A stretch of DNA of 64,000 bases from Tubulanus polymorphus (GCF_964204645.1 NC_134028.1:11269263-11333262); one strand, 5' to 3'; shown: positions 22,120 to 63,521, numbered from the stretch's first letter. Notes: generated by a model from the sequence alone, not told the origin. Numbers and translations are program-made.

Positions 22120-22125
22120 CTTATT

Positions 22126-26711: not shown

Positions 26712-26804
26712 AGTAATTGGAAAAGTGGGCTTTCAGACCAGAGGACGAGAGGACGAGACACCTCTCATCACCACAAGTAATTTTTTTTTCTTATAAATGG
26801 GAGA
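26712..26804 (+). repeat. Polinton left TIR
   Basis: AGTAATTGGAAAAGTGGGC...TTATAAATGGGAGA is the reverse complement of 47179-47271. Confidence 0.97.
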
Positions 26805-37451: not shown

Positions 37452-37459
37452 TTTTTCTA

Positions 37460-37890: not shown

Positions 37891-37959
37891 TTATTTAGGA
37901 AAAATTTTATCAAAATTAATTTTTAGTGATGAGAGGTAATTTTTTTATGTTATAAATAA

Positions 37960-38715
37960 ATGGTAGAATTAAAAGAATACTGAATATTTGTTGATTCTAG
38001 AAGACTTACAAATTATAAATCACATTATTTACTAGTACAATTAGATAGAGAATTTAAGAATTGTGTTGATTTAAAATTAATAAATGTAAGTTTATGTAAT
38101 TCTTTTTATAATATATCGGATAAAACCTTTGAACATAGAGGGTTTATGATTTATATGAGAAATAAATATAAATGGTTTCATCTATTTTTAAAACCAGGAT
38201 TATATAATTTAGAATCATTAGCGCAGGAAATTAATAGAAGAGCTCGGTTGAAAATCGGGGGCACTTCTGTATTTGAAATTAAATTTAATAAAATTGATAG
38301 TACTAATAAAATAAGAATAAAGATATCTAATGAACAGCATAAATTCATGGTAAACAAACCAATGGCTAAAATGTTAGGAATTAAACCGCTTACAGTTACT
38401 GGAAACGCAGAAGGAATCTCAAATATAATACCTTTTACACACTTTTATATTTATTGCAATTTAATCGATCCTACAAAAACTTTCGAAGCTACTAAAGAAA
38501 CAATTTGTAGTTCTAGTATATTAACTATTTTACGGCTAAAAAATGTTAAACAATTTGGAACTCAAATAAATTATAATTTAACAGAATGTGATTTTAAACC
38601 TTGTATTCCTCAATTTAATAATTTTAGATTAGAAGTAAGAAATCATAATGGATATTTAATTGATTTGAATAACTTTCCTATAATTTATGAATTAATTATA
38701 AGATGTAGAGAGTAA
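37960..38715 (+). pseudogene. Minor capsid protein (penton) candidate
   Basis: One TGA at codon 8; IFVDS..NSFYNI at the N-terminus, FYIYCNLID..FRLEVRNHNGYLIDLNNFPIIYELII at the C-terminus, the pattern of Polinton pentons. Confidence 0.7.
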
Positions 38716-38731
38716 TTTTTTCACTATATAA

Positions 38732-39292
38732 ATGAATATAACTGTTGGAGCGAGTATATGTTTTGGATTCGATTTTAAATATGAGAAAGAAATGAAATTT
38801 AACAGTACTGATGTAATTACGCGTATTAAAAATATTGCATTTTCTAATGAAACAACATTTGAGTATGAAAAAACAATAGATAAAGAAACTTTAAATGTAG
38901 AAAAGATTGTTAACGCTTTAGCATTTACTGGTGGTGGTTATTTATTTAAGCATATTGATAAGAATGGTTCATTATCAGAACAAAAAAGACATAATTTAGC
39001 ATTAGAGAAATACAATAAAGCAGCAGAAGAATATAGAGAAAAGTGGCAAAACTATATGGATTATATTAACAAGGAATTATATGATCAGAAAATTTCATAT
39101 AGAGATTTTCAATCAGTTGATGATGCAATGAGTTTATATAACGCAGTAACAAATAAAGAAAAATTACATCTATACAAACCTAAATTATCAGATTATTATA
39201 CCCCAAGTAAAGAAGAACAGAAATATGAAATAATTTGGATTTTAGGCGGAACAGTTATTGTTATATTTGTAGCATATAAATTTACTAATTAG
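38732..39292 (+). CDS. Polinton protein of unknown function with C-terminal TM helix
   Basis: ALAFTGGGYLF..EQKRHNLALE; hydrophobic tail; TAAATG start. Confidence 0.7.
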   Translation: MNITVGASICFGFDFKYEKEMKFNSTDVITRIKNIAFSNETTFEYEKTIDKETLNVEKIVNALAFTGGGYLFKHIDKNGSLSEQKRHNLALEKYNKAAEEYREKWQNYMDYINKELYDQKISYRDFQSVDDAMSLYNAVTNKEKLHLYKPKLSDYYTPSKEEQKYEIIWILGGTVIVIFVAYKFTN

Positions 39293-39311
39293 TAATTTTT
39301 TTGCTAAATAA

Positions 39312-39742
39312 ATGGATGATAAAGTTGATAATATTGATATTATTCCTCATGATATAAATAAAACTAAATTAAAAATAAATTTAGAAAAACAAATATTAGA
39401 ATTTGAAAGTGACTTAAAAATAAAAAAGAAATATTTAAAAAGTAAAATTGTATATTTTTTATTATCAGTGGTTCAGTTACAATTAGTTCTGTAATAACAT
39501 TTCTAGCAAAATTCAGTCCATTACCACCTTTAGCTATATCAATTGGTGTGTAAGGTTTAAGTTCAAGTGTTAGAACTGGCATAAGTTCAAAATTAAATAT
39601 AAAAAGTAATAAAGAAAAAATTAAAACTAATATAAAAGAAATTAATAAATTAAAAAACACACTAGATTATATAATAAGTTTAAACGGTAACATAACAGTT
39701 GAAGAACAAGATAAGTTATTAAAAGAATTAATAAATTATTAA
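39312..39742 (+). pseudogene. Small protein with hydrophobic hairpin and coiled coil
   Basis: TAAATG start; frameshift near 39460; SGSVTISSVITFLAKFSPLPPLAISIGV followed by K/E-rich helix. Confidence 0.5.
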
Positions 39743-39758
39743 TTTTTTTATTATATAA

Positions 39759-41132
39759 ATGGTAGATAGTTTTCCAAAAGCTTTTCAATATAACAAATCA
39801 ATTAAATATAATATTCCTGCAATAGATTTTAACAAAAATATTACATATAAAAATTTAGTTTTAAATTCATCAACTAATCTAGAAATTTATGTTACTGAAA
39901 CACAGTTTTTTATTTCTAAGATGGAAAATATATTTAATAAATATGAAGTTACTTTTACTTGAGATGAACATCATATATATAAAGTAAAATCTAATATGAA
40001 ATATTGGCAGAATCAATTAAATTTTGCTGTTTAATGTGCAACAACTGGTTGTGGTATAAGTTGGAATGATCATTTAAATAACTTAGATAAAAATTTGAAT
40101 TATTCTGATTTAAAATTAATTCACACAATATTTAGATTTCACACATATTTTCAAATCAGAATAATTTTAAATGAATTAGAATGTCCTTTACCCGGATCTA
40201 AATTGTTTAAAGAATTGGATAATAATATTAATCCATCTAAGTTTTTTAAAATATGTAATGAATTTAATATAAATATTAATTCTGATTTTAGAGTGCATGG
40301 TAAATTGCAAGGTATTGGTGAACAGTATGAAATAAAAAGAATTGATTATATGCATAGAATTGGAGCTTATCATAATTATAAAATTGATAATAATAATTGT
40401 TGGATTAATTTTATTTTAGAAAATAGTGAAGATTTTACTGAAGCTGGAATACAAAGAATAAATCAATCTATTAGAACTTATTTGATATGTATTTTAGGTG
40501 CGCAAGTTGAAACAAGATCACCAATAGTTGGAAATGATAACACTTCATTTGATACACAGAAACAATTCAAAGTATTATTTGAAGATTCCATTCATAATGA
40601 TAAAAATAGATTGATTCCAGAAAACATTGTAAGATATCAAAATTATTTAGATAAATCACATATTAGATTAAATTATTGTATAGGCCCTAATCTATTAATT
40701 ATTTATAATGATTTAGTATTAAAGATGGGAAATATAATTGGTTATAATAATCTAATTAAAACTGCAACAATAAATAATTCATTTGGATTGAATGATATAA
40801 ATAAAAAGATAATTACTGCTCCAAAATTAATGGAAGGTGAAAAAAATAAAAAACATATTCGATCAACAGAAACTAAAACTAATAATATAAAATTAAATAA
40901 TGATTCTAAACCGGATTACAATACTATTGAAAATGGTGCCGCACGGCACCCACACGGTGATATTAAAACTGATAATATTCAACATGAAATAATTAAACTA
41001 AATGATGATAATAAATCCCATGAAAATGCTAAATTAGCTATAACTTGTATAGGAATTGTAATCGGAGGAACATTATATTTTAAATTTCAATTTTTTTATT
41101 ATGTAAATGGCAGAAGGTGGAGAAGCTTATGA
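39759..41132 (+). pseudogene. Polinton protein of unknown function
   Basis: ORFs 39759 and 40095 are in frame across stops; WQNQLNFAV.CATTGCG, FRFHTYFQ, ILGAQVETRS; hydrophobic C-terminus. Confidence 0.7.
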
Positions 41133-42533
41133 AGTGGGAGAAATGGGAAATAATAATGATGATAATAATGATGATGATAATAATGATGCTGAAACTAATA
41201 TTGATAATGATGATGAAACAGCGTATAGTTCTAATTTAGGAAATAGTGGTTCTAATGCCCCATTAACAGCTGACTATGATAGAAGAACTAGATCGAGAAT
41301 AAATCCTGAAAATGAAAATTCAGATTTAGTAAAACAAAATTTAGAATATAATGAATATATTCATTATTTCCAACCTATATTTGGAAGATCTGGGTATAAT
41401 ATAAATGCCAGAGGCGCCAGACTTTTAGTACAAGAATTAAAATTTTTTTTAAGGTGAATTTCATTATCGTTTGAAAGATGATTATTATATTGATATCTCT
41501 TATAAAAAACTAAACAAAAAATTAGCAGAATCAACTTTGCTTAAGTTAGACCTATCTTGAATTAAAAGAATAAGAAATAGTAATGAAATAGAAAATGGTA
41601 CCAGCACAGAAATTATTAAAAATGAAAGAGTATTTAAACAAAGAATTAATGACTTATTTGAAACAATCAATAATAATTTAGAACCAGAAACAACTTCTGG
41701 TAAACTTAAATCAAATAAAGTTCCAATTGAAAAACTTTTACCAAATGGTTTACTTGATGCAACAGATCAAGAATTAGAAGATTTAGATATATTTTCTGAT
41801 AAAGCAATAAGAGAAATTATTAGTATAAGAAATGAAGCTGATAAATTTGCACATAATATAAGTATAAGAGATTTTAAAATTAGAACTTTAGAAAAAGATA
41901 GAACTGATAAAATTAAAGAAATAGAACAATTAAAATTAGATAGAGATAATAAAGTTATTGAAGAAATTGAATTTATAAAAAGAAATGCATATTTAGAAAA
42001 AGAAATAGATGATTTAGAATATAACAGAATTTCAGAAAGAAGAAATTAAATTATTATTAAAATTATATGATTATAATATTAATAGATTAAAAGTTATTTT
42101 TAAAAATTTGTTGATTAAACCAGATTCAGAAATATCATTGAAAGATAGAATAAAATTATTATTTAAGTTAGAAGGAATAACAATTCTTTCAATTCTAACG
42201 GCTGTAACTATGGTATTTACAACAATTGGTTTAGCTATATCAAATTCACTGAAATCTACACCATATCCTAATAAACCAGATAAACCCCCGAATGATAATA
42301 ATTCTATACAAGATAAAGTTAAGGATGGTTTAAAAAAATTAGCAAAATATTTATGGGAACTATCTAAAAAATCTGCTGCAGCTTTACCCGGAGTTATTGC
42401 ACCAATTGTTGGTTTTATATTGAAATCTGCAGGAAACATAATTAACTTTGCTGCTGAACATATTATTTTATTTTTAATTACAGTTGTAAGTGCTATTATT
42501 TTTGGGTTAGTGAATATGACAAAAAATAGATAA
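41107..42533 (+). pseudogene. Acidic N-terminus / coiled-coil / multi-hydrophobic-helix protein
   Basis: TAAATG start; frameshifted; C-terminal hydrophobic and amphipathic helices (AAALPGVIAPIVGFIL). Confidence 0.6.
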
Positions 42534-42553
42534 TTAATTTTTTTGTTAAATAA

Positions 42554-43796
42554 ATGAGTGGGAGTTATATAAATCCTTCTAAGAATCATAGAATATCTAA
42601 TGCTATTAAAGCAGAAAGATCTCATCATATAATTACTCATAACCCTTCCAATATTAATCCCGATGAAACTTTATAGAATCCCTAGATTATCAAAAAATAC
42701 TTTTTATGTTCCAAATAGTATTTATTTATCAGCTGATATAAAAGTAACTGGCAATAATAATAATTATATTGTTGATAGTGTTCGAAGATATTTGATTAAA
42801 AAATTAACTATAAAGATTGGTCCAGAAACAGTTTTCTCATTAGATGATTATAATTTATTTATGCATTATAAAGATTTATGGTTGACTAAAGAAGATAGAA
42901 ATAATATGATATTTCAAGGCATCCAATCAGAAAACCAAAATAAATTAAGATCAGGAGCTAATGACGCAATAGTAACTCGTACCGCAGATAATTTGATTAA
43001 AAAGATTTATGGAAGCAAATATCAAATTCCATTAAAGTTTGAATTGATAAATAATAATGCACCTTTGTATAAATACGCAATACAAGAAGATGTTATATTC
43101 GAAATAACATTTGCTCCTGTAAATGAAATTGTATTATCTAGCGTTGTTAAAGATATGGGTTATAAATTATCAAATATATGTTTAGAATATGATACAGTAA
43201 CTGATGAAAATATTGCTAACACAATTCAAACTCAATACAATCAAGGATTTTCATCATTATATGATTATATTGATAAATTTAAAACTGTAACTATTAATGC
43301 AAGTGATGAAATAATTAATGAGAATATTAACTTCCCAAGAAGATCTATTAAAGGTATATTAATATTTTTCACAACTGCAACATATTCTACTGGCGCAATA
43401 CAGGTCGATAATTATCATAATCCTGAAATAACAAAAGTAGTAATAACTATCGAAGGAATAGCAAATAAAATATTTTGTCAATCAATGAGAATGATAGATC
43501 AATGGCCAGAAATTAGAAAACATTTTATGAATGAAAAAGTAAAATCATCTGAAAATTGTAATATTAATCAAATTGATTATTATACCGGCAATAAATATGC
43601 ATTATGGTTAGATTTCAGAACAACAGAGGATAATTCATTACATGGTTCTGGGAAAAAACTACAGAACACTAAAGATGGAATACAATTATTCATGAAAAAG
43701 AAAAAAGGAATCAAAAATTTTAAAATGCACATTTATATTATATCTGACGCGAAATTAAATATTGTAAATTCTCAATTAGGTAGTATTCAATATTAG
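42554..43796 (+). pseudogene. Major capsid protein (double jelly-roll) candidate
   Basis: ~410 codons with one frameshift near 42675; INPSKNHR..ITHNPSNINP, LSNICLEYD, NINFPRRSIKGIL, YALWLDFRTTEDNSLHGSG resemble Polinton MCPs. Confidence 0.8.
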
Positions 43797-43826
43797 AAAT
43801 ATTAAGTTAAAATTAACAATATATAA

Positions 43827-44953
43827 ACGGGTGGTAAAAAAACTCCTAAAACTAAAGAACAATATTTAAGAAATTTATATTACAACCCTGAGAGTTCGGT
43901 TGCTTATTCTTCTGTAAAAATTATATGGCGTCAAGTAAAACAAGATAAATTAGTTAAGATAATCCCACAAGATTTAGTTAAATATAAAGATATAAATGAA
44001 TTTATGTCAGAACAACCAACATATACAACACATAAAAAAATTGTTAGAAAATATAAAACTCGTAAAACTATGGTAAGTTATGTAGATCAACAGTGGCAAG
44101 GAGATTTAATTGATATGAAAAATGTGAAGAAAGATAATGATGATTATTCGTGGATATTGAATATGATTGATATTTTTAGTCGTTATGTATGGAGCTTCCC
44201 ACTTTACAGAAAAGATGCTGTACAAACATCAAATGTTTTAAGAAAATTTCTTTCGGATGATAAACTAAAACCAGAAAAAATACAATTTGATGATGGAAAA
44301 GAATTTGATAATTCACTAGTTCATGAACTCTTAGATAATCATAATATTAGATATTTTTCAACAAAATCGGATAAAAAAGCAGCAGTTGTTGAACGATTTA
44401 ATAGAACATTAAGAACAAGAATGTGGAAATATTTTACAGCAAATAATACTTTTAAATGGATTGATGTTTTACCAAAATTGATAGAAGGTTATAATAATTC
44501 TTACCATTCTTCTATTGGAATGAAACCTATTGATGCTAGAAAACCTGAAAATGCTGAAATTGTTTGGAATAATTTATATGGAGCATTTCTCGTAGATGAT
44601 TTTGGAGAACCTAAATTTAAGTTGGTCAAAATGTTAAAATTTCTAAGTATAAAAAGATATTTGACAGAGGATACGATCGTAATTTTACTAGAGAAATATA
44701 TAAAATAAAAAAGGTAATAACAACAAAACCATATGCCTATAAATTAGAAGATTTAGATGGTGAAGAAGTTGATGGGTACGTTTATGAAGAAGAATTAAGT
44801 TTAACTACTGAAAATCTAGAACAAGAATATAAAATTGAAAAAGTGTTAAAAACAAAAACTATTAAAAGAAAAAAATATTCTTTGGTAAAATGGGTTGGAT
44901 GGCCAGATAAATTTAATGAATGGATATTATCAAGTAAAATTAAAAATATATAA
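43827..44953 (+). pseudogene. Retroviral-like (rve) integrase with C-terminal chromodomain
   Basis: WQGDLIDM, IDIFSRY, QFDDGKEF, VERFNRTL; YKIEKVLK..LVKWVGWPDKFNEWI. Start appears mutated (TAAACG); frameshifts after 44620. Confidence 0.92.
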
Positions 44954-45544
44954 ATGAATAAGGAATTATTTATATTTGAGCCTCATAATATGTTAATTTC
45001 TGGCGTAAAAAATTGTGGAAAAACTTATTTTATATTAAATTTATTAGAAACTATTTATAAAAACTATTTTGATAAAATAGTATTATTTTGTCCAACATAT
45101 GAATTTAATCAAACTTATGATAGAAATATTACTAGAAATAATAAATTTATTATATTTAATCCTAAAACAGTTAAAGAAAATTTAGATGATTGTATTAAAA
45201 TAGCAATTGATATATATAAAGGATCTAATACATTATTTATCATAGATGATTGTGCTAATCTACATGATTCAAAAGTTAGAGAAAGTGAGTTATGCTATTT
45301 AGCTTTTTCTGGGAGACATTTTGGGATAACAACATGGGTTTTAAATCAAAAATATAATTCAATTGTTAAAGATTTTAGAGAAAACATTAGATTTCTAGTT
45401 TTATTCTACAATAAAGATAGAAAATCGATGAAAAATGCACTTGAGGAAAATGATATTATTCCACATGATTTACACAATGAATATATGGATAAATTGAAAA
45501 ATAATAAAAGATCAAAATTACGATTACAGCACCCATTTAAATAA
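44954..45544 (+). CDS. A32/FtsK-like packaging ATPase
   Basis: Walker A GVKNCGKT, Walker B FIIDD, SGRH, LNQ. Confidence 0.92.
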   Translation: MNKELFIFEPHNMLISGVKNCGKTYFILNLLETIYKNYFDKIVLFCPTYEFNQTYDRNITRNNKFIIFNPKTVKENLDDCIKIAIDIYKGSNTLFIIDDCANLHDSKVRESELCYLAFSGRHFGITTWVLNQKYNSIVKDFRENIRFLVLFYNKDRKSMKNALEENDIIPHDLHNEYMDKLKNNKRSKLRLQHPFK

Positions 45545-45556
45545 GAATTTATTTAA

Positions 45557-45743
45557 ATTCAACTAGCTTGTTAATCTAGTATATTTTAGTTACATTCTAG
45601 TTGAATTCTAGTTGTTAGTAGTTGAAACACAAATCAAATAAAATTCAACAAGAAATAAATAAAAACAACAATATTTCAACTAGCTTGTTAATCTAGTTGA
45701 ATTCTAGTTACATTCTAGTTGAATTCTAGTTTAATTCTAGTTG
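45557..45743. repeat. Intergenic CTAG-rich direct repeats
   Basis: TTCAACTAGCTTGTTAATCTAGT twice plus several (GA)ATTCTAGTT units. Confidence 0.7.
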
Positions 45744-45774
45744 CAACAACACAACTAATTTGTTTGTTATGTAA

Positions 45775-46664
45775 ATGGGAGGGGAAAAGAAAATAAAATC
45801 TAAAAATAGTGATGTTCCAATTGAAAAAACTTAAGATGATTTAGGAATAACAGAAACAAAATTAACTCCAGATGATGGTGCTTTAAATAATGTTACAACA
45901 AATAATAATTATGAATATTATCTTTACTGCAAACATCAATTAGAAATATTAATAGCATCTAGGAAATGTAAAAATTTTATCGGTAAAAATTTAACTTATA
46001 ATGAATTAGATACAATGAAATCAGATGAAATTATTAGATTATTTAAGATTTATGAAACTGCGAGAACAGCTAGAATTAATGATGCGATATCAGAAAATGT
46101 AGTAAGAGGTTACAGTAAATTATGTAAATACATGCTACCAATTGAAGATGAAAATAGATTATATTCCGATTTAAAAAATGATTATTTAGTTATGACTGAA
46201 TTAAATAAATGGATTGGATATTTATCATTTCAATTAGGTGGATTTATGACATTATTATCAACTGGAGTTATAACATTTTCAAATATTGAATGTAAAAACT
46301 TTTCTATAATAAATGAGCAAGGTGGAAGAAGTGAAGAAAAAACCGAGAAATCCGAAACAAATTGAATGGTCTCGACAATTAGGAATTAAATCACAAGAAT
46401 ATAAAAAAGCTGTAAAAGAAAAATAAGTAATGAAAACGTTAATAAAAATGGTGAAAATATTGTTATTTCTACTCCTTCTAATAATAGAATATTTGATAAA
46501 TATCTATATTTTGCAGCTGGATTTGTAATTGTATTCATTTTGATTGGGTGTAGTTGGTATAAGAAATCAAATAAAATTTATGATATTTATAATTCTGAAA
46601 CAACTGCTATTAAAAATGAAAATACTTCTGGAATTCCAAAATTGACAATAAAAAAATGGATTAA
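45775..46664 (+). pseudogene. Polinton genes X (45775-46365) and Y (46313-46664)
   Basis: YYLYCKH, LYSDLKNDYLVMTEL; Y has PKQIEWSRQLG plus a TM helix; homologous to genes in copies A-C. Confidence 0.75.
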
Positions 46665-46860
46665 TATTTTAGAAAAAAGCAAACAATTTTTTTTAATTAA
46701 TTGAATATCACCTTGTGGGTTCCGTACGGCACCATCTCACTACTTTAACTATCACTGTGTGGGTGCCGTTTATGGCACCATCTCCGCGGAGCAATTGAAT
46801 TGTCCAGATAAGTCATTTCGGATTCTAGATATTCATTATTTTTATTATCAATTTATTTTT

Positions 46861-47186
46861 TTAATCAATAATTTCTAAATCATGATGACCATCTTCATTT
46901 TTTCCAGGATAGATTATTTCAAATCCTTCTAAATCTTTTAATTCCTCTGTACTCAATGCAACCCATTTATCAGGTAAAAATACTTTAAATTCTTGCGATG
47001 TACTAACATTACAGTAACTTAAATTCGCTGATACTTTCTCTCCATATTTAGTTTTTATCTTTTCTAATTTCAATATTTTATGTTCAATTTCTTTTGTAAC
47101 ATCAACTAACTTTTTTATTTCAAATTGGTTTTTGCTGGTTTTATTCTGTTACTTATTGTTGCTAAGAATGTTTTTCTATCTCCCAT
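46861..47186 (-). pseudogene. Small beta-rich protein (possible OB-fold), start codon inside right TIR
   Basis: KLEKIKTKYGEKVSANL..FKVFLPDKW; frameshift near 47120; fold is a guess. Confidence 0.45.
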
Positions 47187-47271
47187 TTATAAGAAAAAAA
47201 AATTACTTGTGGTGATGAGAGGTGTCTCGTCCTCTCGTCCTCTGGTCTGAAAGCCCACTTTTCCAATTACT
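47179..47271 (-). repeat. Polinton right TIR
   Basis: Reverse complement of 26712-26804. Confidence 0.97.
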
Positions 47272-51238: not shown

Positions 51239-51390
51239 AGTAATAGGGGTAATAGGCTTTCATACCAAAGGTCGAGAGGTCGAGAAAGTAAAAAAATAAA
51301 AAATAAATTCTCGCACACTCGAATTTATTTTTTATTTTTACTCACTCGCCCCTTCAACCTTTGATATGAAAGCCTATTACCCCTATTACT
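51239..51390. repeat. Terminal palindrome of copy B
   Basis: AGTAATAGGGGTAATAGGCTTTCATA ... TATGAAAGCCTATTACCCCTATTACT. Confidence 0.9.
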
Positions 51391-51622
51391 CTTAAAATAT
51401 TCATATACATGAATAACATTTAAATTGATAGATTATTCAATATAAAAGTGTGAGCTCTTATAGAATAGATATATAGATATATTTTAAACATTATTTCAAT
51501 ATTTATATTTGTATGAGTTAGATTTTTAAACGTTAAAAGTGTTAGTAAAGTGTGATTGAAATAATACATATATAAATCATTGAACTTCTAAAATCAATTA
51601 AGTAAAAAAATATGTATAATAA

Positions 51623-52292
51623 ATGGAATCAGAACAACCACAAACTATCAATATTACAAATAACACTGGCGTCATAAATATATATTACAAGAAGAGTTCT
51701 AAGTGTGAATTAGATAAATTAGCTTTAACAGAATTTAGTAAGCGTAAGATTAGCAAAGATGGTTTTCAATATTGCTGTAAAACTTGTACTAAACTATATA
51801 CCAAACAATACCGAGAAGATAATATAGAACATTACAATTATTATATGGCAGAATATATGAGAGAAAGATATCAAACAGATCTTAATTTTAGATTGAAACA
51901 ATGCTTAAGATCTAGATTAACACAATTATTCAACAAAGAAACACATTCAGAAACACTATCTAATTTATTGGGTTGTTCAGATGAATTCTTAAAATCATGG
52001 ATTATATTTCAATTCGATGATAAAATGAATATAGATAATTATGGGGATTATTACCATATTGATCATGTGTTACCAATATCTAAATTTAACATGAATGATG
52101 AATACAATAAAAAACTTTGGATTGGGTTGGAAAAATTTAAGGCCTTTAGAAAAGAAGGAAAACATAATTAAATCTAATAAACTAGATTTACAGTTATATT
52201 TAGATCAACTGGATAAAGCAAAGACATTTGTTGAATTATGGAATAGTATTTCACAGAATCAACCGCATTCTGAGGTTTTAATCAGTGGTTAG
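51623..52292 (+). pseudogene. HNH-family endonuclease (copy B)
   Basis: SKDGFQYCCKTC, LLGCSDEFLKSWI, HIDHVLPISKF, WKNLRPLEKKEN; frameshift near 52115; C-terminal part duplicated at 54217-54432. Confidence 0.75.
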
Positions 52293-52657
52293 AAAACCGG
52301 CAATTCTATTTGAGTCTTGTTTGTATATAATACATAGCTCTTGTTTACTACTAAAACATATGTTGCCAAATATATCTTGTTCTCAATTCTAAAGAATTAA
52401 TTAACTTCATCATGAAGAACATTTGTTACAATCCAGGCAAACATGCAGAAATAATTAGTTTGGTCGAACGTGCGCCACGTCGGCAGTTAGAAATCAACTT
52501 TCACATACATAGTACGTATTGGATATTCTCTCTCAAAACACAGTTTACAGTTCTAAATCTAAATGTAAGTACCGTTTTTGTAGTTATTATGAAGTAGGGA
52601 AACCTTTAAACATATTTAAGTACAGTAATTCATTTTCACGACATCTTTTAGATTAAA

Positions 52658-53739
52658 ATGGAATACAGAGATCGACCAGAAATGCCAAGTCAACCATCGG
52701 AAGAGGAACCAGAAACGATGGATAGTGAAACACAGGAATCAATAGAAATGGGGGATAAAACTCTCGTAATGGGGTACCCGCGAAACCAGCTATCCCACCA
52801 GATGGCGCAACAAGCAGTAGGTCGTTCGTTTTCAAAATTAGTTCATTTTCAATGACATTTGAACTGGATTTTTGAACTCCTCAATCCATATACTATCACA
52901 GCACCTACCAATATACAATACTTTCATTCTTCTAATCGGATGTTGGTAAAGTTTCCAAAAATGATTCATTCATTTAAGAGAAAAGTTAATTTAGGTTTAA
53001 TTGAAATGTAGACGAAATCGAACGTGGACGACCAACTATCTACTAGCGACACCTGGCGGATCCTCGCCTGCCATACGTGGAATCCTCGATTGCCACAGTA
53101 GCACTGCGGGTACCCCATTGACGAACAAACTTCACAAAAATTACAAGAACATTTGGATTATCATCAAGAAATGGTGAAAATTCTGAGTGATGTAATACAT
53201 AATAAACAATTACCGCGCGAACTACAATTACCAAAATTACCAGCAACGCGACTTAAATTGCTGTTGGGACTCAAAGAATCGAAAACTAAGAAAATGAGTG
53301 GAGAAGAGTTGAACGAGTTTTTAAAATCTAAATTAATCATTGACACAGAACATTTAAACTTTCCGAAAATACAAAGTGTAGAAGTTATTTCATTTGCTGA
53401 AATTACTGATATCTTTAAAAAAAAGTTATAAAACCATATTAAATAGAAAAGCAAATCACCTATGGGACCACATCATTTTCGGGGGTTATCTAAATATAGG
53501 GTTTTCAATGTTTGATAAAGAAACTGAGGGGATTTCTTGGGGGCTGTGGGTTAAAAAGAACATAGATATCAGTGCCGGTTTGGAAAGAAAACTGGGAAGA
53601 GTAGGTAGATTAATAAAATATGAAAAATTCAAAATATTAGGATTAGCATTTAGTAGTCAGATATTTACCAGAAATTGAAGAAATTGAAGAAATGATTGGA
53701 AACAATCCAGTAATTAAAGAATTCTGGACAAAATTATAA
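52658..53739 (+). pseudogene. Unknown accessory gene, decayed (deleted version at 60595-61061)
   Basis: ORF fragments conserved between copies B and C (VKILSDVIHNKQLPRELQLPKLPATRLKLLLG). Confidence 0.5.
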
Positions 53740-53810
53740 ATTATAACACTGAAGGTCTTAGATATCAAAAAATGTAATCTCGATTGTATATATCTGTTTT
53801 AATATTGTAT

Positions 53811-54009
53811 TGTTTACTGTTAACTAAGTATAACGCAATAACCGGTCCGATTGGACCGCTTTTCTATTGTTCTCCATTGTTCTATTATCGATCGTTGTTA
53901 ATGGCGGCGGTTGTTCTGTATTGATTGTTTACTGTTAACTAAGTATTGCGCAATAACCGGTCCGATTGGACCGCTTTTCTATTGTTCTCCATTGTTCTAT
54001 TATCGATCG
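53811..54009. repeat. Direct repeat pair, also at 60281-60510
   Basis: CGCAATAACCGGTCCGATTGGACCGCTTTTCTATTGTTCTCCATTGTTCTATTATCGATCG twice; GGTCC-GATT-GGACC hairpin. Confidence 0.8.
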
Positions 54010-54741
54010 CTAAAATTTACATAATAAATATATTTGTTTATGAAATAATATTTCCACCAGTCGTTTCGTTGAAATGATTTTCAGTTGAGGATTTATTATC
54101 GAGGATCCGAAATGACTTATCAAAAGCAGCGAGGAATGAAAAAGGATGACATTAGTCGAAGAAATGGAAGAGGATTCTAAAATGTTAATCAATTTTAATA
54201 AAAATTTGATTTATAAATGGAAAGGAATGATGAATACAATAAAAAACTTATTTGGAATTGGAAAAATTTAAGACCTCTTGAAAAGAAAGAAAATAAAATA
54301 AAATCTAATAAACTAGATTTACAGTTATATTTAGAACAGTTAACAAAGGCAAAGAAATTTATTGATCAATGGAACAATGATCCAAATAATGAACAATACG
54401 TTGAGGAATTTGATATCAAGGATCCGAAATGACTTATCTGGACAGTTATAATTACTGCTCCTAATAGATAAACAAAAGTAGTGAGATATCAAATAGAATT
54501 CAAATAAAATATATTAAAAAAACAATAACTTCAACTAGCCATTATTTCTATTTTAATTTTTGATATATTCTTTTACAATTCTTTTCAAAAGAGAATACTT
54601 TATATCACAAATAAAAAATACTAAAAAAACAATAACTAATACTAAAATTCTTTACCTTTAACTAAGCTAGTATTAATCTAAAGAGATACTGGTATCATTT
54701 TATAATAATTATATTTTTTTTCGCTTTTTTCTCTAATATAA

Positions 54742-55344
54742 ATGTCAAAGAAATCGAGTAAGAATAGTATTGGTATTGAAAAGACATTTGATGATTTGGG
54801 TATAAGTGATAATAAAGAAACAGTTGTAACTAATTGTGCTCAAGTTAATTGTAATATTGATTATGAATACTATTTATATTGTAAACACCATCTTGAATTA
54901 CTAATTGCTGGCGGGAAATCTAAAGAGTTTTTAACTAAGATAATTACTTTTCAAGAATTAGATGCTATGAAACCCGATAAAGTAATAAAATATTTTAAGA
55001 TTTATGAAGAAGCAAGATTAGCTAGAATAAATGATTCTATTTCAGATGGTATTGTCAAATGTTATTCTAAGTTATGTAACCAGTTAATACCAATTGATGA
55101 TGAAAATGAATTATACAGTGATTTGAAAAATGACTACTTAGTTATGACTGAATTACAAAAATGGGTTGGTTATGCTTCATTCCAATTAGGATCGGTTATG
55201 ACATTAATTTCTACTGGTGTCATTACATTTTCGAATATCAAGCCTATGGAATATAAATCAGGTAAGAACGAAACAGATGTACTACAACCAAACGCCGAAA
55301 CAGAAAATGAATCAGAACAAAAATTAACTAAAATAAATGAGTGA
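54742..55344 (+). CDS. Gene X, unknown function (copy B, intact)
   Basis: 200-aa ORF with TAAATG start; homologous to Polinton 45775-46365. Confidence 0.8.
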   Translation: MSKKSSKNSIGIEKTFDDLGISDNKETVVTNCAQVNCNIDYEYYLYCKHHLELLIAGGKSKEFLTKIITFQELDAMKPDKVIKYFKIYEEARLARINDSISDGIVKCYSKLCNQLIPIDDENELYSDLKNDYLVMTELQKWVGYASFQLGSVMTLISTGVITFSNIKPMEYKSGKNETDVLQPNAETENESEQKLTKINE

Positions 55345-55735
55345 TGGAGTTAAGAAAAAGGCTAGATCCGAGAAACAAATTAAATGGGCAAGAGAATTAG
55401 GTAAAAGATCTTCAGAATTAAAAAAAGCTAAGAAAAAGAAATTAACTGATATAAATGAATCACAGACTTTATCTGATAATAATTCAAATAATAATCCATC
55501 TAATTCTTCTAATGCTGGTAGTAGTAATTACTTATATATTACAATTGGATTAGTAACAGTTATTATATTATCTGGTGTAATATATAAATCAAAATTCAAA
55601 TCTGATGATAAAGATGATTCCAATGATGATCGGAAACTTAGTTATCCGTGTACAGACAATAAACCTATCATACCAGAAAATAAGTCAAATCATAAAACCA
55701 TTGAAACTAAATCTAAATTATTATTAATGGATTAA
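55337..55735 (+). CDS. Gene Y, basic N-terminus + TM helix (copy B, intact)
   Basis: RSEKQIKWARELG; YLYITIGLVTVIILSGVIY. Confidence 0.8.
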   Translation: MSDGVKKKARSEKQIKWARELGKRSSELKKAKKKKLTDINESQTLSDNNSNNNPSNSSNAGSSNYLYITIGLVTVIILSGVIYKSKFKSDDKDDSNDDRKLSYPCTDNKPIIPENKSNHKTIETKSKLLLMD

Positions 55736-55741
55736 AATAAG

Positions 55742-56827
55742 ATGAAAAAAGAACAATATTTAAGAGATTTATATTATAACCCAGAAAGTGAAGTATCATA
55801 TTCTAACGTTTCAGAATTATGGAATAAAAATAAATCTGATAATGAAAATATAAAATATAGTGAATTGAAATCATGGTTACAAAATCAACCAACATATCAA
55901 ATACACAAGAAAATGGATAAAACATATTTAACAAGAAAAGTTATGGTTTCATATATCGATCAACAATGGCAAGCAGATTTAATTGACATGAAGAACTTAG
56001 AAGAATACAACAAAGGATATTTCTGGATATTAAATGTTATATACATATTCAGTAGATACGCATGGTCAATTCCAATCAAAAATAAAACTGGTATAGAAGT
56101 AACAAGTGCTTTTAAGAATATATTTAAAGAAGCTATTCCAGATAAGATACAATTTGATGAAGGTAAGGAATTCTATAACAAATATTTAAAAAAACTATTA
56201 TCTGATAACGATGTAGATTATTTTTCAACACACTCAGATAAAAAAGCATTACTTATAGAAAGGTTTAATAAAACATTGAAAACTAGAATGTGGAAATATT
56301 TTACTGCTAATGAAACATATATTTATATCGATGTATTAGATGATTAAGTGAAAGGTTATAATAATTCTAAACATAGTTCTATAAATATGAAACCTATACA
56401 AGCTAGAAAAGAAGATAATTCGGAAATAGTTTGGAATAATTTATATGGAGCATTTGTTACACATGATTTCGGTGAACCTAGATTTAAAATTGGACAACAC
56501 GTTAGAATATCTAAATATAGAAAAACCTTTTATAAAGGTTATACCCCTAATTTTACAGAAGAAATATTTAAGATTAAAAAGATAATATTAACTAAACCAT
56601 TTGTTTATAAACTAGAAGATCTAAAAGATGAAGAAATATTAGGTTATTTCTATGAACAAGAATTATCACTTGTACCAAATCCAGATGAAATAGAATACAA
56701 AATGGAAAAAGTATTGAAAACAAAAACTCTTAAAAGAAAAAAGTATTCTTTGGTGAAATATAAACGATATGATGATAAATTTAATGAATGGATTTTATCT
56801 AGTAAAATTAAAAGAATAAATGAATAA
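55742..56827 (+). pseudogene. rve integrase + chromodomain (copy B)
   Basis: WQADLIDM, QFDEGKEF, IERFNKTL; single TAA at 56345. Confidence 0.92.
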
Positions 56828-57083
56828 AGATTTATTTATATTTGAACCGCATAATATGTTAGTTACTGGAGTAACCAATTGTGGTAAAACACATTTCATA
56901 TTAGATTTGTTAGAAACTATTTATAAGAATCATTTTGATAATATAATATTATTCTGTCCTACTTATGAAATGAATAAAACATATAATAGAGATACAGTTA
57001 AGATGAAAAATTTTATTATATTAGATCCTAAATAAATTAAAGAATAATAAAGGTTCAAAATTATTACTGAGACTACAATTTCC
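56820..57083 (+). pseudogene. Packaging ATPase, internally deleted (copy B)
   Basis: Walker A GVTNCGKT; jumps near 57030 to C-terminal NKLKNNKGSKLLLRLQFP. Confidence 0.85.
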
Positions 57084-57188
57084 AAGATTCTTGCCAAGAA
57101 AGTAAAAAGGTAAGAATCTTACTTTCTTACTCGTACGTCTAGTACATAGATATATAAATTAGTTTCTATAATATTCCAAATTAGGATT

Positions 57189-57800
57189 TTATTTTATAGA
57201 TTTATATTCATAGGGAAATTGTAGTCTCAGTAATAATTTTGAACCTTTATTATTCTTTAATTTATTCATATATTCATCATGTAATTCAGTAGGTATAATT
57301 TGATTTTCTTCCAATGATTTTTGCATAGATTTTTTATCTTTGTTATAAAATAAAACTAGAAATCTTATATTCTCCCTAAAGTCTTTAACAATTGAATCAT
57401 ATTTTTGATTTAAAACCCATGTTGTTATCCCCAAATGTCTCCCAGAGAAAGCTAAATAACATAACTCACTTTCTCTCACTTTTGAATCATGTAAATTAGC
57501 ACAATCATCTACTATGAATAATGTATTTGATCATTCATAAGCATCAATTGCTATTTTAATACAATTATCTAAATTTTCTTTTACTGTTTTAGGATTTAAT
57601 ATAATAAACTTTTTTATCTTAACTATATCTCTATTATATGTTTTATTCATTTCATAAGTAGGACAAAATAATATTATATTATCAAAATGATTCTTATAAA
57701 TAGTTTCTAACAAATCTAATATGAAATGTGTTTTACCACAATTGGTTACAGCAGTAACTAACATATTATGCGGTTCAAATATAAATAAATCTTTATTCAT
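57189..57800 (-). pseudogene. Packaging ATPase (copy C)
   Basis: NCGKT, SGRH; frameshift near 57530. Confidence 0.88.
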
Positions 57801-58914
57801 TTATTCTTTTAATTTTACTAGATATAATCCATTCATTAAATTTATCATCATATCCTTTATATTTCACCAAAGAATACTTTTTTCCTTTGAGAGTTTTTGT
57901 TTTCAATACTTTTTCTATTTTGTATTCTATTTCATCTGGATTTGGTACAAGTGATAATTCTTGTTCATAGAAATAACCTAATATTTCTCCATCTTTTAGA
58001 TCTTCTAATTTATAAACAAAAGGTTTAGTTAATATTATCTTTTTAATCTTGAATATTTCTTCTGTAAAATTAGGGGTATAACCTTTATAAAAGGTTTTTC
58101 TATATTTAGATATTCTTACGTGTTGTCCTATTTTTAATTTAGGTTCTCCGAAATCATGTGTAACAAACGCACCATATAAATTATTCCAAACTATTTCTGA
58201 ATTATCTTCTTTTCTAGCTTGTATAGGTTTCATATTTATAGCACTATGTTTACAATTATTATAACCTTTCACTAAATCATCTAACACATCGATATATTTA
58301 TATGTTTCATTAGCAGTAAAATATTTCCACATTCTAGTTTTCAATGTTTTATTAAATCTTTCTATAATAGATGCTTTTTTTTATCTGAGTGTGTTGAAAA
58401 ATAATCTACATCGTTATCAGATAATAGTTTTTTTAAATGTTAGTTATAAAATTCCTTACCTTCATCAAATTGTATCTTATCTGGAATAGCTTCTTTAAAT
58501 ATTGATTTAAAAGCATTTGTCACTTCTATACCAGTTTTTTTTTTTGATTGGAATTGACCATGCGTATCGACTGAATATGTCTATAACATTTAATATCCAG
58601 AAACATCCTTTATTATGTTCTTCTAAGTTCTTCATGTCAATTAAATCTGCTTGCCATTGTTGATCAATATATGAAACCATAACTTTTCTTGTTAAATAAG
58701 TTTTATCCATTTTCTTGTGTATTTGATATGTTGGTTGATTTTGTAACCATGATTTCAATTCACTATATTTTATATCATCGTGTGGGTGCCATACGGCACC
58801 ATTACCATTTTCATTATCAGATTTAATTTTATCCAATAATTCTGAAACGTTAGAATATGATACTTCACTTTCTGGGTTGTAATATAAATCTCTTAAATAT
58901 TGTTCTTTTTTCAT
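57793..58914 (-). pseudogene. rve integrase + chromodomain (copy C)
   Basis: Same motifs as B; homopolymer frameshifts; 33-nt in-frame insert at 58774-58806. Confidence 0.9.
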
Positions 58915-58921
58915 CTTATTT

Positions 58922-59869
58922 TAATCCATTAATAATAATTTAGATTTAGTTTCAATGACTTTATGATTTGACTTATTTTCTGGTATAATAGGTTTATTGT
59001 CATTGGAATCATCTTTATCATCAGATTTGAATTTTGATTTATAACTATAATAACTGTTACTAATCCAATTGTAATATATAAGTAATTATTACTTCCAGCA
59101 TTAGAAGAATAAGATGGATTGTTATTTGAATCAATATCAGATAAAGTCTGTGATTCATTTATATCAGTTAATTTCTTTTTCTTAGCTTTTTTTAATTCTG
59201 AAGATCTTTTACCTAATTCTCTTGCCCATTTAATTTGTTTCTCGGATCTAGGCTTTTTCTTAACGCCATCACTCATTTATTTTAGTTAATTTTTGTTTTG
59301 ATTCATTTTCTGTTTCACTGTTTGGTTGTAGTACATCTGTTTCGTTCTTACCTGATTTATATTCCATAGGCTTGATGTTCGAAAATGTTATGACACTAGT
59401 AGAAATTAATGTCATAACCGATCCTTATTGAAATGAAGCATATCCAACCCATTTTTGTAATTCAGTCATAACTAAATATTCATTTTTCAAATCACTATAT
59501 AATCTATTTTCATCATCAATTGGTATTCTGGTTACATAACTTAGAATAACATTTGACAATACCATCTGAAATAGAATCATTTATTCTAGCTAATCTTGCT
59601 TCTTCATAAATCTTAAAATATTTTATTACTTTATCTGGTTTCATAGAGTCTAATTCTTGAAAAGTAATAATTCTATTTAAAAACTCTTTAGATTTTCCGC
59701 CAGCAATCAATAGTTCTAGGTGGTGTTTACAATATAAATAGTATATATAATCAATATTACAATTAACTTGAGCACAATTAGTTACAAATGTATCTTTATT
59801 ATCACTTATACCCAAATCATCTAATGTTTTTTCAATATCAATACTATTCTTGCTCGATTTCTTTGACAT
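58922..59869 (-). pseudogene. Genes X and Y (copy C)
   Basis: Near-identical N-termini to the copy B genes; frameshifted. Confidence 0.8.
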
Positions 59870-61389
59870 TTATATTAGAGAAATTTAATAAGAAAAATAT
59901 TATAAGTATTCTTCAAATGATACTAGATAGTTAAAGTTAAAGAATTCTTGTATTGACTACTGATACTAGCTATTTGAATTTAAGGAATTTCTATTTGAAT
60001 CTATTCAAAATACAAAGTATTCTCTTTTTGAAAAGAAAATATTAAAAATATAATAGAATTCACTAGCAGTTGAAGTTATTGTTTTTTTATTATATTTTAT
60101 TTAAATTAGGATTTAATATCTCACTACTATTGTCTATCTATTAGGAGCAGTAATTATAACTGTCCAGATAAGTCATTTCGGATCCTCGATAATAAATCCT
60201 CAAACTGAAAATAAATTCAAAGAAACGACTGGTGGAATTACTATTTCATAAACACATATATTTATTATACAAATTTTAGCGATCGATAATAGAACAATGG
60301 AGAACAATAGAAAAGCGGTCCAATCGGACCGGTTATTGCGCAATACACAGTTATATTTTTATTCTGTAAACTACAACATTCAAACATAGAAATGTAACCA
60401 ATCAATATTGAGCAGCTGTTTCCGTCAACAACGATCAATAATAGAACAATGGAGAACAATAGAAAAGCGGTCCAATCGGACCGGTTATTGCGCAATACAC
60501 AGTTAACAGTAATCAATACAATATTAAAACAGATATATACAATCAAGATTACATTTTTTGATATCTATATTACAAAGACCTTCAGTGTTATAATTTATAA
60601 TTTTGTCCAGAATTCTTTAATTACTGGATTGTTTCCAATCATTTCTTCAATTTCTGGTAAATATCTGACTACTTCACTAAATGCTAATCCTAATATTTTG
60701 AGTTTTTCATATTTTATTAATCTACCTACTCTTCTCAGTTTTCTTTCAAAACCGGCACTGATATCTCCACTCATTTTCTTATTTTTCGATTCTTTGACTC
60801 CCAACAGCAATTTAAGTCGCGTTGCTGGTAATTTTGGTAATTGTAGTTCGCGCGGTAATTGTTTATTATGTATTACATCACTCAGAATTTTCACCATTTC
60901 TTGATGATAATCGAAATGTTCTTGTAATTTTGTGAAGTTTGTTCGTCAATTACGAGAGTTTCATCCTCCATTTCTATTGATTCCTGAGTTTCACTATCCA
61001 TCGTTTCTGGTTCCTCTTCCGATGGTCGGCTTAGAATTTCTGGTCGATCTCTGTATTCCATTTTAATCTAAAAGATCTCGTGAAAATGAATTACTGTACT
61101 TAAATATGTTTAAAGGTTTCCCTACTTCATAATAACTACAAAAAAACGGTACTTACATTTAGATTTAGAACTGTAAACTGTGTTTTGAGAGAGAATATCC
61201 AATACGTACTATGTATGTGAAAGTTGATTTCTAACTGCCGACGTGGCGCACGTTCGACCAAACTAATTATTTCTGCACAGATGTTCTTTGTGATGAAGTC
61301 AATTAATTCTTTAGAATTGAAAAAAAGATATATTTGGCAACATATGTTTTAGTAGTAAGCAAAAGCTATGTATTATATACATACAAAGC

Positions 61390-61997
61390 TCAAATGTCTT
61401 TGCTTTATCCAGTTGATCTAAATATAACTGTAAATCTAGTTTATTAGATTTAATTATGTTTTCCTTCTTTTCTAAAGGTCTTAGATTCTTCCAATTCCAA
61501 ATAAGTTTTTTATTGTATTCATCATTCATGTCAAATTTAGAAATCGGCAACACGTGATCAATATGAAAGTATTCACCATAATTATCTATATTCATTTTAT
61601 CGTTGAATTGATATATAATCCATGATTTTAAGAATTCATCTGAACAACCCAATAAATTAGATAGTGTTTCTGATTGTGTTTCTTTGTTGAATAATTGTGT
61701 TAATCTAGTCATTAAGCATTGTTTCAATCTAAAATTAAGATCTGTTTGATATCTTCCTCTCATATATTCTGCCATATAATAATTATAATGTTCTATATTA
61801 TCTTCTCGATATTGTTTGGTATATAGTTTAGTACAAGTTTTACAGCAATATTGAAAACCATCTTTGCTAATCTTACGCTTACTAAATTCTGTTAAAGCTT
61901 ATTTATCTAATTCACATTTAGAACACTTCTTGTAGTATATATTTAATACACCAGTATTATTTGTAATATTGATAGTTTGTGGTTGTTCTGATTCCAT
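61390..61997 (-). pseudogene. HNH-family endonuclease (copy C)
   Basis: TAAATG start; HIDHVLPISKF..NWKNLRPLEKKEN. Confidence 0.75.
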
Positions 61998-62233
61998 TTA
62001 TTATACATATTTTTTTACTAAATTGATTTCAGAAGTTCAATGATTTATATCATGTATTATTTCAATCACACTTTACTAACACTTTTAATGTTTAAAATCT
62101 AACTCATACAAATATAAATATTGAAATAATGTTGTAAATATATCTATCTATATATCTATTCTATAAGAGCTTACACTTTTATATTGAATAATCTGTCAAT
62201 TTAAATGTTATTCATTTACATGATTATTTTAAG

Positions 62234-62422
62234 AGTTATAGGGATAATAAGCTTTCAGGTTAAAGGTTGAAGGGGCGAGTGAGTAAAAAATGAAAATAAC
62301 AATAATTTACAGTTGAATTAGGAGTATGCGCGACTAATTCAACTGTAAATTATTGTCATTTTCATTTTTTTACGAGCTCGACCCTTCGACCTTTGATCTG
62401 AAAGCCTATTATCCCTATTACT
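62234..62422. repeat. Terminal palindrome of copy C
   Basis: AGTTATAGGGATAATAAGCTTTCAG ... CTGAAAGCCTATTATCCCTATTACT with a longer central stem than copy B. Confidence 0.88.
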
Positions 62423-63521
62423 CTTCAGGTAAACGCGCCTCCCGCAAAACGGCATCGATCATGATTCAGGCGAACGTTAACTGGCGAACGGGTGGGAACG
62501 TCTTATCTAGCTTAATGGGCACGCCTATCTCGTGACGTCGTAGAAAGTTGTTTAGATCACGCTGGCATTTGAGCTCGCCTTTTGCAATGAACAGAAAATC
62601 GTCAAGAATATGTACAACGAAAGAGCACCCTAACTTATGAACAGCTACCCACTTTAAACAAGACGAGAAACGATCGAAAATAGCGCACGAACTAGAGGGC
62701 CCCATCGGCAAAACAGCATCAACATAAAACTTGCCGTCCAAGGTAAAGCCCAACAAGGGTTGATCAAACTCGCTTATGGGGATAATGCGAAACGCGGATT
62801 CTATATCTGTTCTTGCAAGGTAAACGTCCGGACCCAGAGATTTGATTATATCGATTGCATCTTGAATAGTTGAATATTTAATGGCGGATGCATCCACGGG
62901 GACAAAGTCGTTAACCGAAGAACCCTTTGGGTAGGACAGGTGATGGATAACCCTAAAGCCCCCCGAGCTTTTGGGCACGACGCCGAGGGGCGAAACATGA
63001 ATTGGAGCGCCATCTGGCATAAATGGGTCACTGAAGGGACCCCTAACTCTCCCCAAATCAAGTTCTTTCGTAATCTTTTCCCGAACCACATTGGGATGAT
63101 CCCTAGCTGACTTTAAATTTGTGATACCGCGGCTTGCGATTGGTCCCCCGAAAAAACTGTCGATGCGGAAACCGTGTTGAAAACCGTTGATTAGTAAATC
63201 GCGTTGCTCAGAGTCGTAATCCAAAATGTAGGGTAGAAGTTTAGTTATTCTAACCGGTGTGGGGAGGCTTGGCAGCCTTGGGTCTTTCGGGACGCTGGTT
63301 GCCAGTGCCGGCTGACCGGGCACAATTGACTGCCGAGTGTGAGCCCCTGCAAAATTTACATCTGTGTGCATTAGATGCAGGATTTCCGGGTAAACCCAGA
63401 GAAGCTGTTGTACGCAAAACAGACTTTGGTGAGCGATTGCGAGGAGCTGTTGCGAAAGGACTGGTTGGAGGGGCGTCGAGTTTTGGACTCCATCCAAAGC
63501 TCCCAATCGACGGTGTCCCAA
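62423..63521 (-). pseudogene. Ngaro/DIRS-type reverse transcriptase, 3'-truncated by copy C
   Basis: PTPV, GFRI, NLKSA, SPLGVVPK, FRVIHHLSYP, DIESAFR, LPMG, ILDDF; reads on to REARLPE at the 62423 junction. Confidence 0.88.

Follow-up and report, generated by a model that had tools for sequence, protein, structure and literature searches.

An abundant polymerase-less Polinton derivative with a palindromic end in the genome of Tubulanus polymorphus

A stretch of 64,000 nucleotides from Tubulanus polymorphus (GCF_964204645.1 NC_134028.1:11269263-11333262), which we refer to as the window and in which positions are counted from the first letter, contains three copies of one unit. They were delimited by self-comparison and lie at 51239-57083 on the plus strand (copy A) and at 62422-57085 and 24440-21326 on the minus strand (copies B and C, respectively). 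The unit is a real and abundant derivative of Polintons that lacks a polymerase and has an unusual palindromic end, and the block of genes that it carries is itself ordinary Polinton content. A and B form an inverted pair with outer termini at 51239 and 62422, and we conclude that they are probably decayed inverted copies of a high-copy Polinton (Maverick) derivative that has no pPolB gene between its end and its HNH-like gene and that likely depends on full-length Polintons for replication. The unit has the properties of a non-autonomous derivative in that its ends are like those of the autonomous element, it shows an internal deletion when compared with its relatives, and many copies are present at different sites.

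The three copies have in common the gene order terminal palindrome, HNH-like open reading frame (ORF), ORFs X and Y, an rve integrase whose tail is chromo-like, and an A32-type packaging ATPase; self-comparison and ORFs thus bear out the order given in a preliminary description of the window that had been made from the sequence alone. A and B are 93.8% identical over 4,732 aligned columns, with 10 indels of at least 20 nt between them, and C is ~80% identical to both over most of its length. Frameshifts or stops are present in all three copies. In A the integrase is split and 323 nt are missing from within the ATPase gene. The frames of X, Y, and the integrase are shifted in B, whose ATPase also contains a single in-frame stop. 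In C the outer palindrome arm is gone, as are ~700 nt of the integrase and the final third of the ATPase. C retains a small zinc-finger ORF (24248-24126) that A and B have lost. None of A, B, and C has a right terminus, confirming the earlier remark that the far end is lacking in all three, and no target-site duplication was seen for any of them.

The most unusual feature of the unit is its terminal palindrome. The palindromes of A and B, both of which are imperfect, were folded as single-stranded DNA, and none of 200 shuffles folded as well as either. The start AGTAATAGGGG (AGTAAT) is identical in A at 51239 and in B at 62422, exactly the two coordinates given in the preliminary description. 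The apex of the B palindrome is 37 nt longer than that of A, the additional sequence flanking a conserved loop on each side. A BLAST comparison of the outer arm with the terminal inverted repeat (TIR) of a full-length Polinton of another lineage that is resident in the window gave 27 matches over 31 nt, and the likeness is also seen in a separate alignment. Within the window, the palindrome is found on the pPolB-less unit and is absent from the pPolB-bearing resident element, with one case of each. B and C had been described as beginning at AGT within genes of other elements; this holds for B, which starts with AGTAAT and cuts a reverse-transcriptase ORF, but not for C, in which the outer palindrome arm is lost so that its start is not AGT. 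The ORF in the flank of A has no family match, and Pfam models identified no families among nine ORFs to the left of A. A search of the window for an uninterrupted copy of either flank returned only short left-flank repeats and no empty site.

Reads from one Illumina run with the same species label (X5, ~12% of reads) were mapped on B at 85% likeness. Depth along B from the palindrome to the ATPase is 400-950 compared with 5.8 and 27 in two flank bins, and if single-copy depth is 4-6 this would correspond to ~100-200 copy equivalents. At 62422/62423, 2,055 reads turn loose with an agreement of only 0.35, and such highly diverse flanks at the AGT terminus indicate a genuine mobile-element end. 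Depth, diverse flanks, and TIR likeness together mark the unit as a mobile, high-copy element with Polinton-type ends, which supports part of the earlier interpretation. At ~1750, depth in the palindrome bin exceeds that of the body 2- to 3-fold, and either each element has two such ends or the ends are common to other elements. An extra segment that lies between the HNH-like gene and X in A and B has ~55-60% of the read depth of the rest of the element. At the far end of B, depth drops from ~800 in the ATPase to ~300 at its stop codon (57189-57191); most of the tail behind it has a depth of 77-133, and the last 20 nt have 21. The 145 reads that turn loose at 57189 do so with an agreement of 0.73, arguing that most copies run past the ATPase stop into a fairly uniform tail of their own.

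The same reads separate A from B. We considered the sites at which the read majority departs from B, taking the 35 best supported of 689 rows, 27 of which can be assessed in A. At 26 of these 27 sites A carries the majority base and at only one does it carry the base of B. In addition, a 33-nt skip in the integrase (58776-58808), which is the state of A, is present in 73 reads, with ~66 more showing similar skips, at a depth of ~410. Because A has the majority base at nearly all sites and the 33-nt indel is polymorphic in the reads, A and B belong to different sublineages, as the preliminary description had inferred. The corresponding 11-codon insertion is found in about two thirds of the reads, whereas frameshifts of 1-2 nt are private to B; an in-frame insertion that spread, as opposed to frameshifts that remained private, suggests that the integrase was under continued selection for a time. 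In C, 21325-21902 is 93% identical to 56718-57048 and 57375-57902, that is, at the integrase end and the ATPase, compared with ~80% elsewhere, a split that suggests possible recombination or conversion between sublineages.

Relatives of the unit were collected by way of ORF X, for which 6 homologs were found among 207 candidates; scanning metagenome contigs with the alignment of these homologs gave 5 loci among 328 pattern matches. Scans of viral contigs with the X alignment and with the ATPase of one related contig (L002) identified no relative. The related contigs are 70-82% identical to the copies at the nucleotide level, and their frames are intact. In L003 the gene order is pPolB (1241 aa), HNH (256 aa), X, Y, and integrase. 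L002 has X, Y, integrase, and ATPase, after which the opposite strand encodes a zinc-finger protein, a protein of 415 aa, and a tape-like membrane protein; the X, Y, and integrase proteins of L002 are identical to those of L003. L001 is arranged as L002 except that Y and the integrase are separated by an HNH gene on the opposite strand. In L004 the order is capsid, integrase, ATPase, X, and Y, which is that of the resident Polinton; a deoxynucleoside kinase gene follows Y in this contig (10340-10981; Pfam dNK, E 2e-31). Structural modelling identifies the 415-aa protein as a double jelly-roll capsid protein: the model has a pLDDT of 88.6 and 261 PDB matches at E 0.001 or better, and the best Foldseek matches are capsid proteins of an iridovirus and PBCV-1 (E 4e-16), with that of mavirus at 4e-11. 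All three relatives that hold the ATPase stop together with downstream sequence (L001, L002, and L004) have a palindrome with arms of 50-74 nt directly 3' of this stop.

Comparison with these relatives accounts for the missing polymerase. No pPolB was found in A, B, or C; tblastn searches with the L003 pPolB and the pPolB pieces of the window match only 27180-36576, which is within the resident element. A aligns to L003 only from position 4058 on, and the pPolB of L003 stops at 4062; C additionally matches positions 1-65 of L003, which are upstream of pPolB. Because the alignment resumes at the pPolB stop and homologs of pPolB are confined to the resident element, we consider the family a deletion derivative that lost pPolB. 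The absence of a polymerase that had been claimed earlier is therefore supported at the family level. However, the block itself is not supported as a self-contained design, because in the relatives the same block lies inside full Polintons, with pPolB upstream of HNH in L003 and the capsid gene after the ATPase in L001 and L002; HNH-X-Y-integrase-ATPase is thus an internal part of full Polintons. Intact copies extending past the ATPase into pPolB or capsid genes, which would have spoken against a satellite according to the preliminary description, are seen only in these relatives and in no copy of the same family. A compact length of 5-6 kb and the absence of a capsid gene are candidate traits of intact family members. 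The three copies themselves contain no capsid homolog and no penton or protease gene.

The unit would have originated by internal deletion of pPolB. Its insertion would be carried out by an rve integrase, either its own or that of a helper, acting on AGT...ACT ends, and its copying would take place in trans by the protein-primed polymerase of the helper; priming from the terminal hairpin of the unit is a less likely way of copying. The resident Polinton is a candidate for the type of helper involved. Several observations weigh against the derivation and dependence that we propose. All three copies are dead, so that activity is historical, and the right terminus is present in no copy. The hexamers beside the termini of the inverted pair are CAACTC on the A side and CTTCAG on the B side, that is, there is no 6-bp duplication for A and B as a unit, and the two flanks are unrelated sequences. 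Single-copy depth, and hence copy number, is based on one or two bins, and related lineages could be among the reads accepted at 85% likeness. The resident Polinton is 73-75% identical over the stretch from integrase to ATPase (83-85% in the ATPase gene), is broken, and has another gene order. Finally, a capsid gene follows the ATPase in the relatives, and intact family members may therefore supply their own capsids.

For the intact form of the family we weighed a longer element with a capsid gene, a compact element of ~6 kb, and an ~11-kb fold-back unit, in this order, while an artefact or any other form appears improbable. The first possibility, which we put forward tentatively, is that the copies are left arms of longer elements, intact members of which run past the hairpin behind the ATPase into zinc-finger, double jelly-roll capsid, and virion-module genes, so that they would lack a polymerase but have their own capsids and the copies in the window would be remnants. 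The gene order of L001 and L002 and the capsid fold of their 415-aa protein agree with this possibility, as do the uniform sequence into which most reads continue at 57189 and the internal, intergenic position of the post-ATPase palindromes in the relatives. However, all three copies stop in the ATPase gene or within ~105 nt after it, and such endings would be unlikely under random truncation of a ~14-kb element (by our estimate a few percent per copy). Moreover, neither zinc-finger genes of the type found in the relatives nor a second capsid gene exist anywhere in the 64 kb.

The same endings are expected if intact members are compact satellites of ~5.5-6 kb that end shortly after the ATPase hairpin and borrow both polymerase and capsid from full Polintons, a form that we regard as rather unlikely. 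The high copy number and the uniform depth from terminus to ATPase stop are consistent with such satellites, and so is the ATPase, which is nearer to that of the resident Polinton (79-82% aa identity) than is the integrase (50-57%), as would fit a need to work with the capsid of a helper. In contrast, a right terminus and a duplication are seen in no copy, the block is internal in the relatives, and the tail behind the ATPase has no significant likeness to the terminal palindrome or the Polinton TIR. The latter point also removes the earlier suggestion that one copy runs past the ATPase stop into a second sequence starting with AGTAA: the likeness of the tail of B to such a terminus had been noted by eye and was dropped when local alignment scores against the palindromes and the Polinton TIR fell within those of shuffles.

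The place at which A and B meet is the hairpin behind the ATPase gene, and both breakpoints are near-symmetric there. Joints that fold back to the opposite strand at 57112-57124 were found in 27 reads (4 rows, shorter side up to 43 nt), which indicates that other copies have a longer hairpin at this place. On one reading, 51239-62422 could be one palindromic element of 11.2 kb, a fold-back (snap-back) unit. Its two left arms, joined at the apex of the post-ATPase hairpin, would stem from a switch of strands while a linear Polinton genome was being replicated, and the whole would have inserted through its two identical ends. The inverted arms do reach both termini, stopping exactly at two AGT ends in a manner that excludes a chromosomal fold-back, and the centre is at the stem-loop where other copies fold back and where the relatives have palindromes. 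A small central replacement would suffice (~84 nt lost, 25 nt gained), and A and B have two minority variants in common: both carry the extra segment and both have lost the small zinc-finger ORF. Nevertheless, we consider this origin unlikely, because two arms from one molecule that inserted as one unit are not what we find: the two unrelated flanks show no duplication; the arms differ by the 33-nt indel that is polymorphic in the family, by the symmetric 37-nt difference at the palindrome apex, and by 8 other indels of at least 20 nt; and depth in the palindrome exceeds that in the body 2- to 3-fold when 1:1 is expected.

Other origins of the junction were rejected. A late local inverted duplication is at odds with the private changes of B, which A shares at only 1 of 27 sites; a chromosomal fold-back would have copied the flanks as well, yet the arms stop exactly at the element termini; and insertion of A in the tail of B would have left a duplication, which is not seen (CAACTC compared with CGTACG). 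Breakage or template switching at the post-ATPase hairpin is the most likely cause of the join. Beside the centre of the palindrome, 57040-57083 and 57214-57257 are complementary at 44 of 44 nt though the arms differ by 6%; this could be chance (~7%, an estimate) or arm-to-arm correction near the centre.

A parasite that replicates by hairpin priming can also be envisaged. Here, the palindrome of 150-190 nt would replace pPolB by hairpin priming through a cellular or helper polymerase, the HNH-like nuclease would resolve the hairpin, and the integrase and ATPase would serve insertion and loading into helper capsids. Such a self-integrating Polinton parasite is quite doubtful; if true, it would explain why more than 100 copies exist while full Polintons stay rare. 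It is very improbable that the pair is an assembly artefact or that the unit is an ordinary autonomous Polinton with its polymerase elsewhere: palindromic joins can come from long-read chimeras and very few short reads cover the junction of A and B at 57083/57084 (depth 2.7 in 57062-57082), but the 6% divergence and 10 large indels between the arms show that this is not one copy folded by the assembler, the join of palindrome and HNH-like gene is covered at family depth, and no copy has a pPolB remnant.

Table 1. Coordinates of the unit, its copies, and associated features in the window
Feature	Position	Strand	Description
Terminal palindrome of A	51239..51392	+	154 nt; starts AGTAATAGGGG; DNA fold -52.3 kcal/mol, z -16.3
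HNH-like ORF of A	51623..52171	+	182 aa, C-terminal end in another frame; sub-threshold HNH_4 match (E 0.056); 52% identical to the intact L003 homolog of 256 aa
Extra segment of A	52263..54208		Variable, 1.96 kb; 34% GC compared with 25% in the rest of A
ORF X of A	54742..55344	+	200 aa; 6 homologs at ~60% identity; X homolog 3' of the ATPase in the resident Polinton
ORF Y of A	55337..55735	+	132 aa; N-terminus basic, with a low-complexity stretch and a single hydrophobic segment; homologs in L001-L004
Integrase of A	55742..56827	+	ORFs 55742-56347 and 56387-56827; rve core and chromo-like C-terminus; 52-57% identity to resident integrase
ATPase remnant of A	56820..57083	+	First 71 codons, 323-nt internal deletion, last 53 nt; ends 8 codons before the stop
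Non-coding tail of B	57084..57188	-	105 nt behind the ATPase stop; stem 57110-57116 / 57124-57130, loop 57117-57123
ATPase of B	57189..57800	-	A32/FtsK type; 203 sense codons and one in-frame stop; 79% identity to resident ATPase
Integrase of B	57793..58914	-	Broken into two ORFs; 11-codon in-frame insertion 58776-58808 absent from A
Y and X of B	Y 58929-59276, X 59272-59869	-	Frameshifts in both
Extra segment of B	60203..61395		Shorter than that of A by indels of 348, 262, and 317 nt
HNH-like ORF of B	61311..61997	-	57% identity to L003 HNH
Terminal palindrome of B	62231..62422	-	192 nt; DNA fold -63.2 kcal/mol, z -16.4
Reverse-transcriptase ORF of another element	62466..63521	-	Cut by the B terminus; Pfam RVT_1 E 9e-8
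Copy C	21326..24440	-	Truncated at both ends; palindrome inner arm, zinc-finger ORF, HNH, X, Y, deleted integrase, first 142 ATPase codons
Resident Polinton	26712..47271	+	Other lineage; ~100-nt plain TIRs starting AGTAATTGG; 6-bp duplication CACGCG on both sides

The HNH label of the first gene is modestly supported. Across 38 sequences the motif residues D168, H169, and N192 never vary, and H166 and N201 almost never do. The scores of the gene with the Pfam models HNH and HNH_4 are below the cut-offs, and Pfam HNH families are carried by 2 of its 67 homologs. The top Foldseek rows for the protein are HNH domains of Cas9, with a weak E of 0.025; VIA Z is at most 5.0. A sequence-profile search of the PDB with this gene had ribosomal L7 as its top match (E 0.012, on a low-complexity stretch), and HNH-bearing chains followed at E 0.08 and 0.75. 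Two relatives carry the gene at different positions, and L004 and the resident Polinton lack it, a distribution that would fit a free-standing mobile nuclease gene.

The extra segment is absent in C. In A it is flanked by a direct repeat of ~150 nt that corresponds to the 3' end of the HNH-like gene (52093-52243 and 54225-54374), and its ORFs have no family match. Within the segment are tandem repeats of 92 nt (53803-54009 and 60280-60523), for which copy-number variants are present in the reads, with 125 reads showing a joint that goes back 91 nt. Between the segment and X, a non-coding stretch of ~70 nt (54417-54489; 23396-23326 in C) has 80-82% identity to L004:2449-2516, a region between two virion-module ORFs of that contig, and may be a shared promoter-like element.

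A Protein Atlas query with X had no usable match. The integrase of A scores 29.7 bits with rve (cut-off 32.6) and 17.5 bits with Chromo, both of which are below the cut-off, whereas the intact relative in L002 reaches 36.4 bits and the integrase of the resident Polinton passes rve at 44.4 bits. The ATPase of the resident Polinton matches Pox_A32 with E 3e-13. Protein identity between the unit and the resident Polinton is highest for the ATPase (44954-45544 compared with 57189-57800), followed by X (62-72%) and the integrase. The resident element has pPolB, a capsid gene, integrase, ATPase, X, and Y and is itself disrupted. Relative to the intact L003 polymerase, its pPolB is interrupted from ~30170 to 36114; the interruption looks like an intein within a conserved Asp-Thr-Asp polymerase motif, with Pfam Intein_splicing matching only at E 0.0055, and a Harbinger element with DDE_Tnp_4 and Myb ORFs (31530-34289) in turn divides this intein-like insert.

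Overall, the window is rich in mobile elements, including LINE, Harbinger, and a DIRS-like reverse transcriptase, and a tRNA scan of it found no genes. In a LINE-like element at 13542-18933, the reverse transcriptase and endonuclease ORFs lie downstream of ORFs that encode DnaJ and GDSL/SGNH esterase domains. C is enclosed by inverted arms of ~800 nt (20536-21328 and 24616-25510) that are 90-93% complementary and come from another, GC-richer element, and its truncated ATPase abuts the inner edge of one of these arms exactly.

How Polintons are copied and moved is still inferred, and a polymerase-less family estimated at a hundred or more copies is natural evidence on mobilisation in trans. The integrase of this family stayed open long enough for an in-frame insertion of 11 codons to spread through most of it. 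If intact copies are compact or fold-back elements, they would be true parasites of an endogenous virus. Autonomous Polintons (Mavericks) have terminal inverted repeats with 5'-AG...CT-3' and a 6-bp target-site duplication. The AGTAAT termini of A and B are like the ends of the resident element, where such a duplication is present, and intact units would have AGT...ACT termini of this kind. The unit further shares with autonomous Polintons the rve integrase, complete with a chromo-like tail, and the A32/FtsK packaging ATPase, and X and Y are common to the unit, the resident element, and L001-L004. Unlike them, the unit has no pPolB, A, B, and C have no capsid, penton, or protease genes, and the terminal repeat is a palindrome of 154-192 nt at one end instead of a simple inverted repeat at both ends.

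Polinton-related insertions that lack polB and are nevertheless mobile occur in butterflies in groups of similar copies, and the authors raise the question of their mobilisation (10.1101/2025.02.07.637071). These insertions are likewise Polinton derivatives that lost polB, but they keep capsid genes and both inverted repeats, and polB was lost along with a retrotransposon insertion (10.1101/2025.02.07.637071). By comparison, the deletion in the unit is clean, its copy number is far higher, and only its left half is seen. In Halocafeteria, endogenous virophages and polinton-like viruses have palindromes of ~52 nt at the tips of their inverted repeats, by the insertion site; the palindromes are reported preferentially in elements without pPolB, and hairpin priming of replication has been proposed (10.64898/2026.07.28.741278). 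Like these elements, the unit has a palindrome at its very tip; it has no pPolB, and protein priming as opposed to hairpin priming can thus be tested in a second, distant host. The two differ in that the Halocafeteria elements reside in a protist and have other replication genes, whereas the unit has a palindrome of 154-192 nt, is in an animal genome, and contains no recognised replication gene. In a nematode paper, HNH occurs as a domain of pPolB rather than as a gene of its own.

One review-type text uses the term "non-autonomous polintons" in passing, for Tlr1 only. A literature search found no paper on fold-back Polinton derivatives or on a polymerase-less family of this build. Snap-back defective genomes, such as those of incomplete adenovirus, arise in linear DNA viruses that replicate by strand displacement. 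In these genomes one end is duplicated in inverted orientation, giving two identical ends as in the inverted pair; however, the arms of A and B differ by polymorphisms at the level of the family, the copy is integrated in the germline, and origin from a single molecule is only a candidate. The unit may also resemble transpovirons, virophages, and phage satellites in being a small element that would lean on a larger virus for the functions it lacks, an analogy that the preliminary description drew for transpovirons and phage satellites. It differs from all of these in that it derives by deletion from the helper's own kind, as non-autonomous transposons do.

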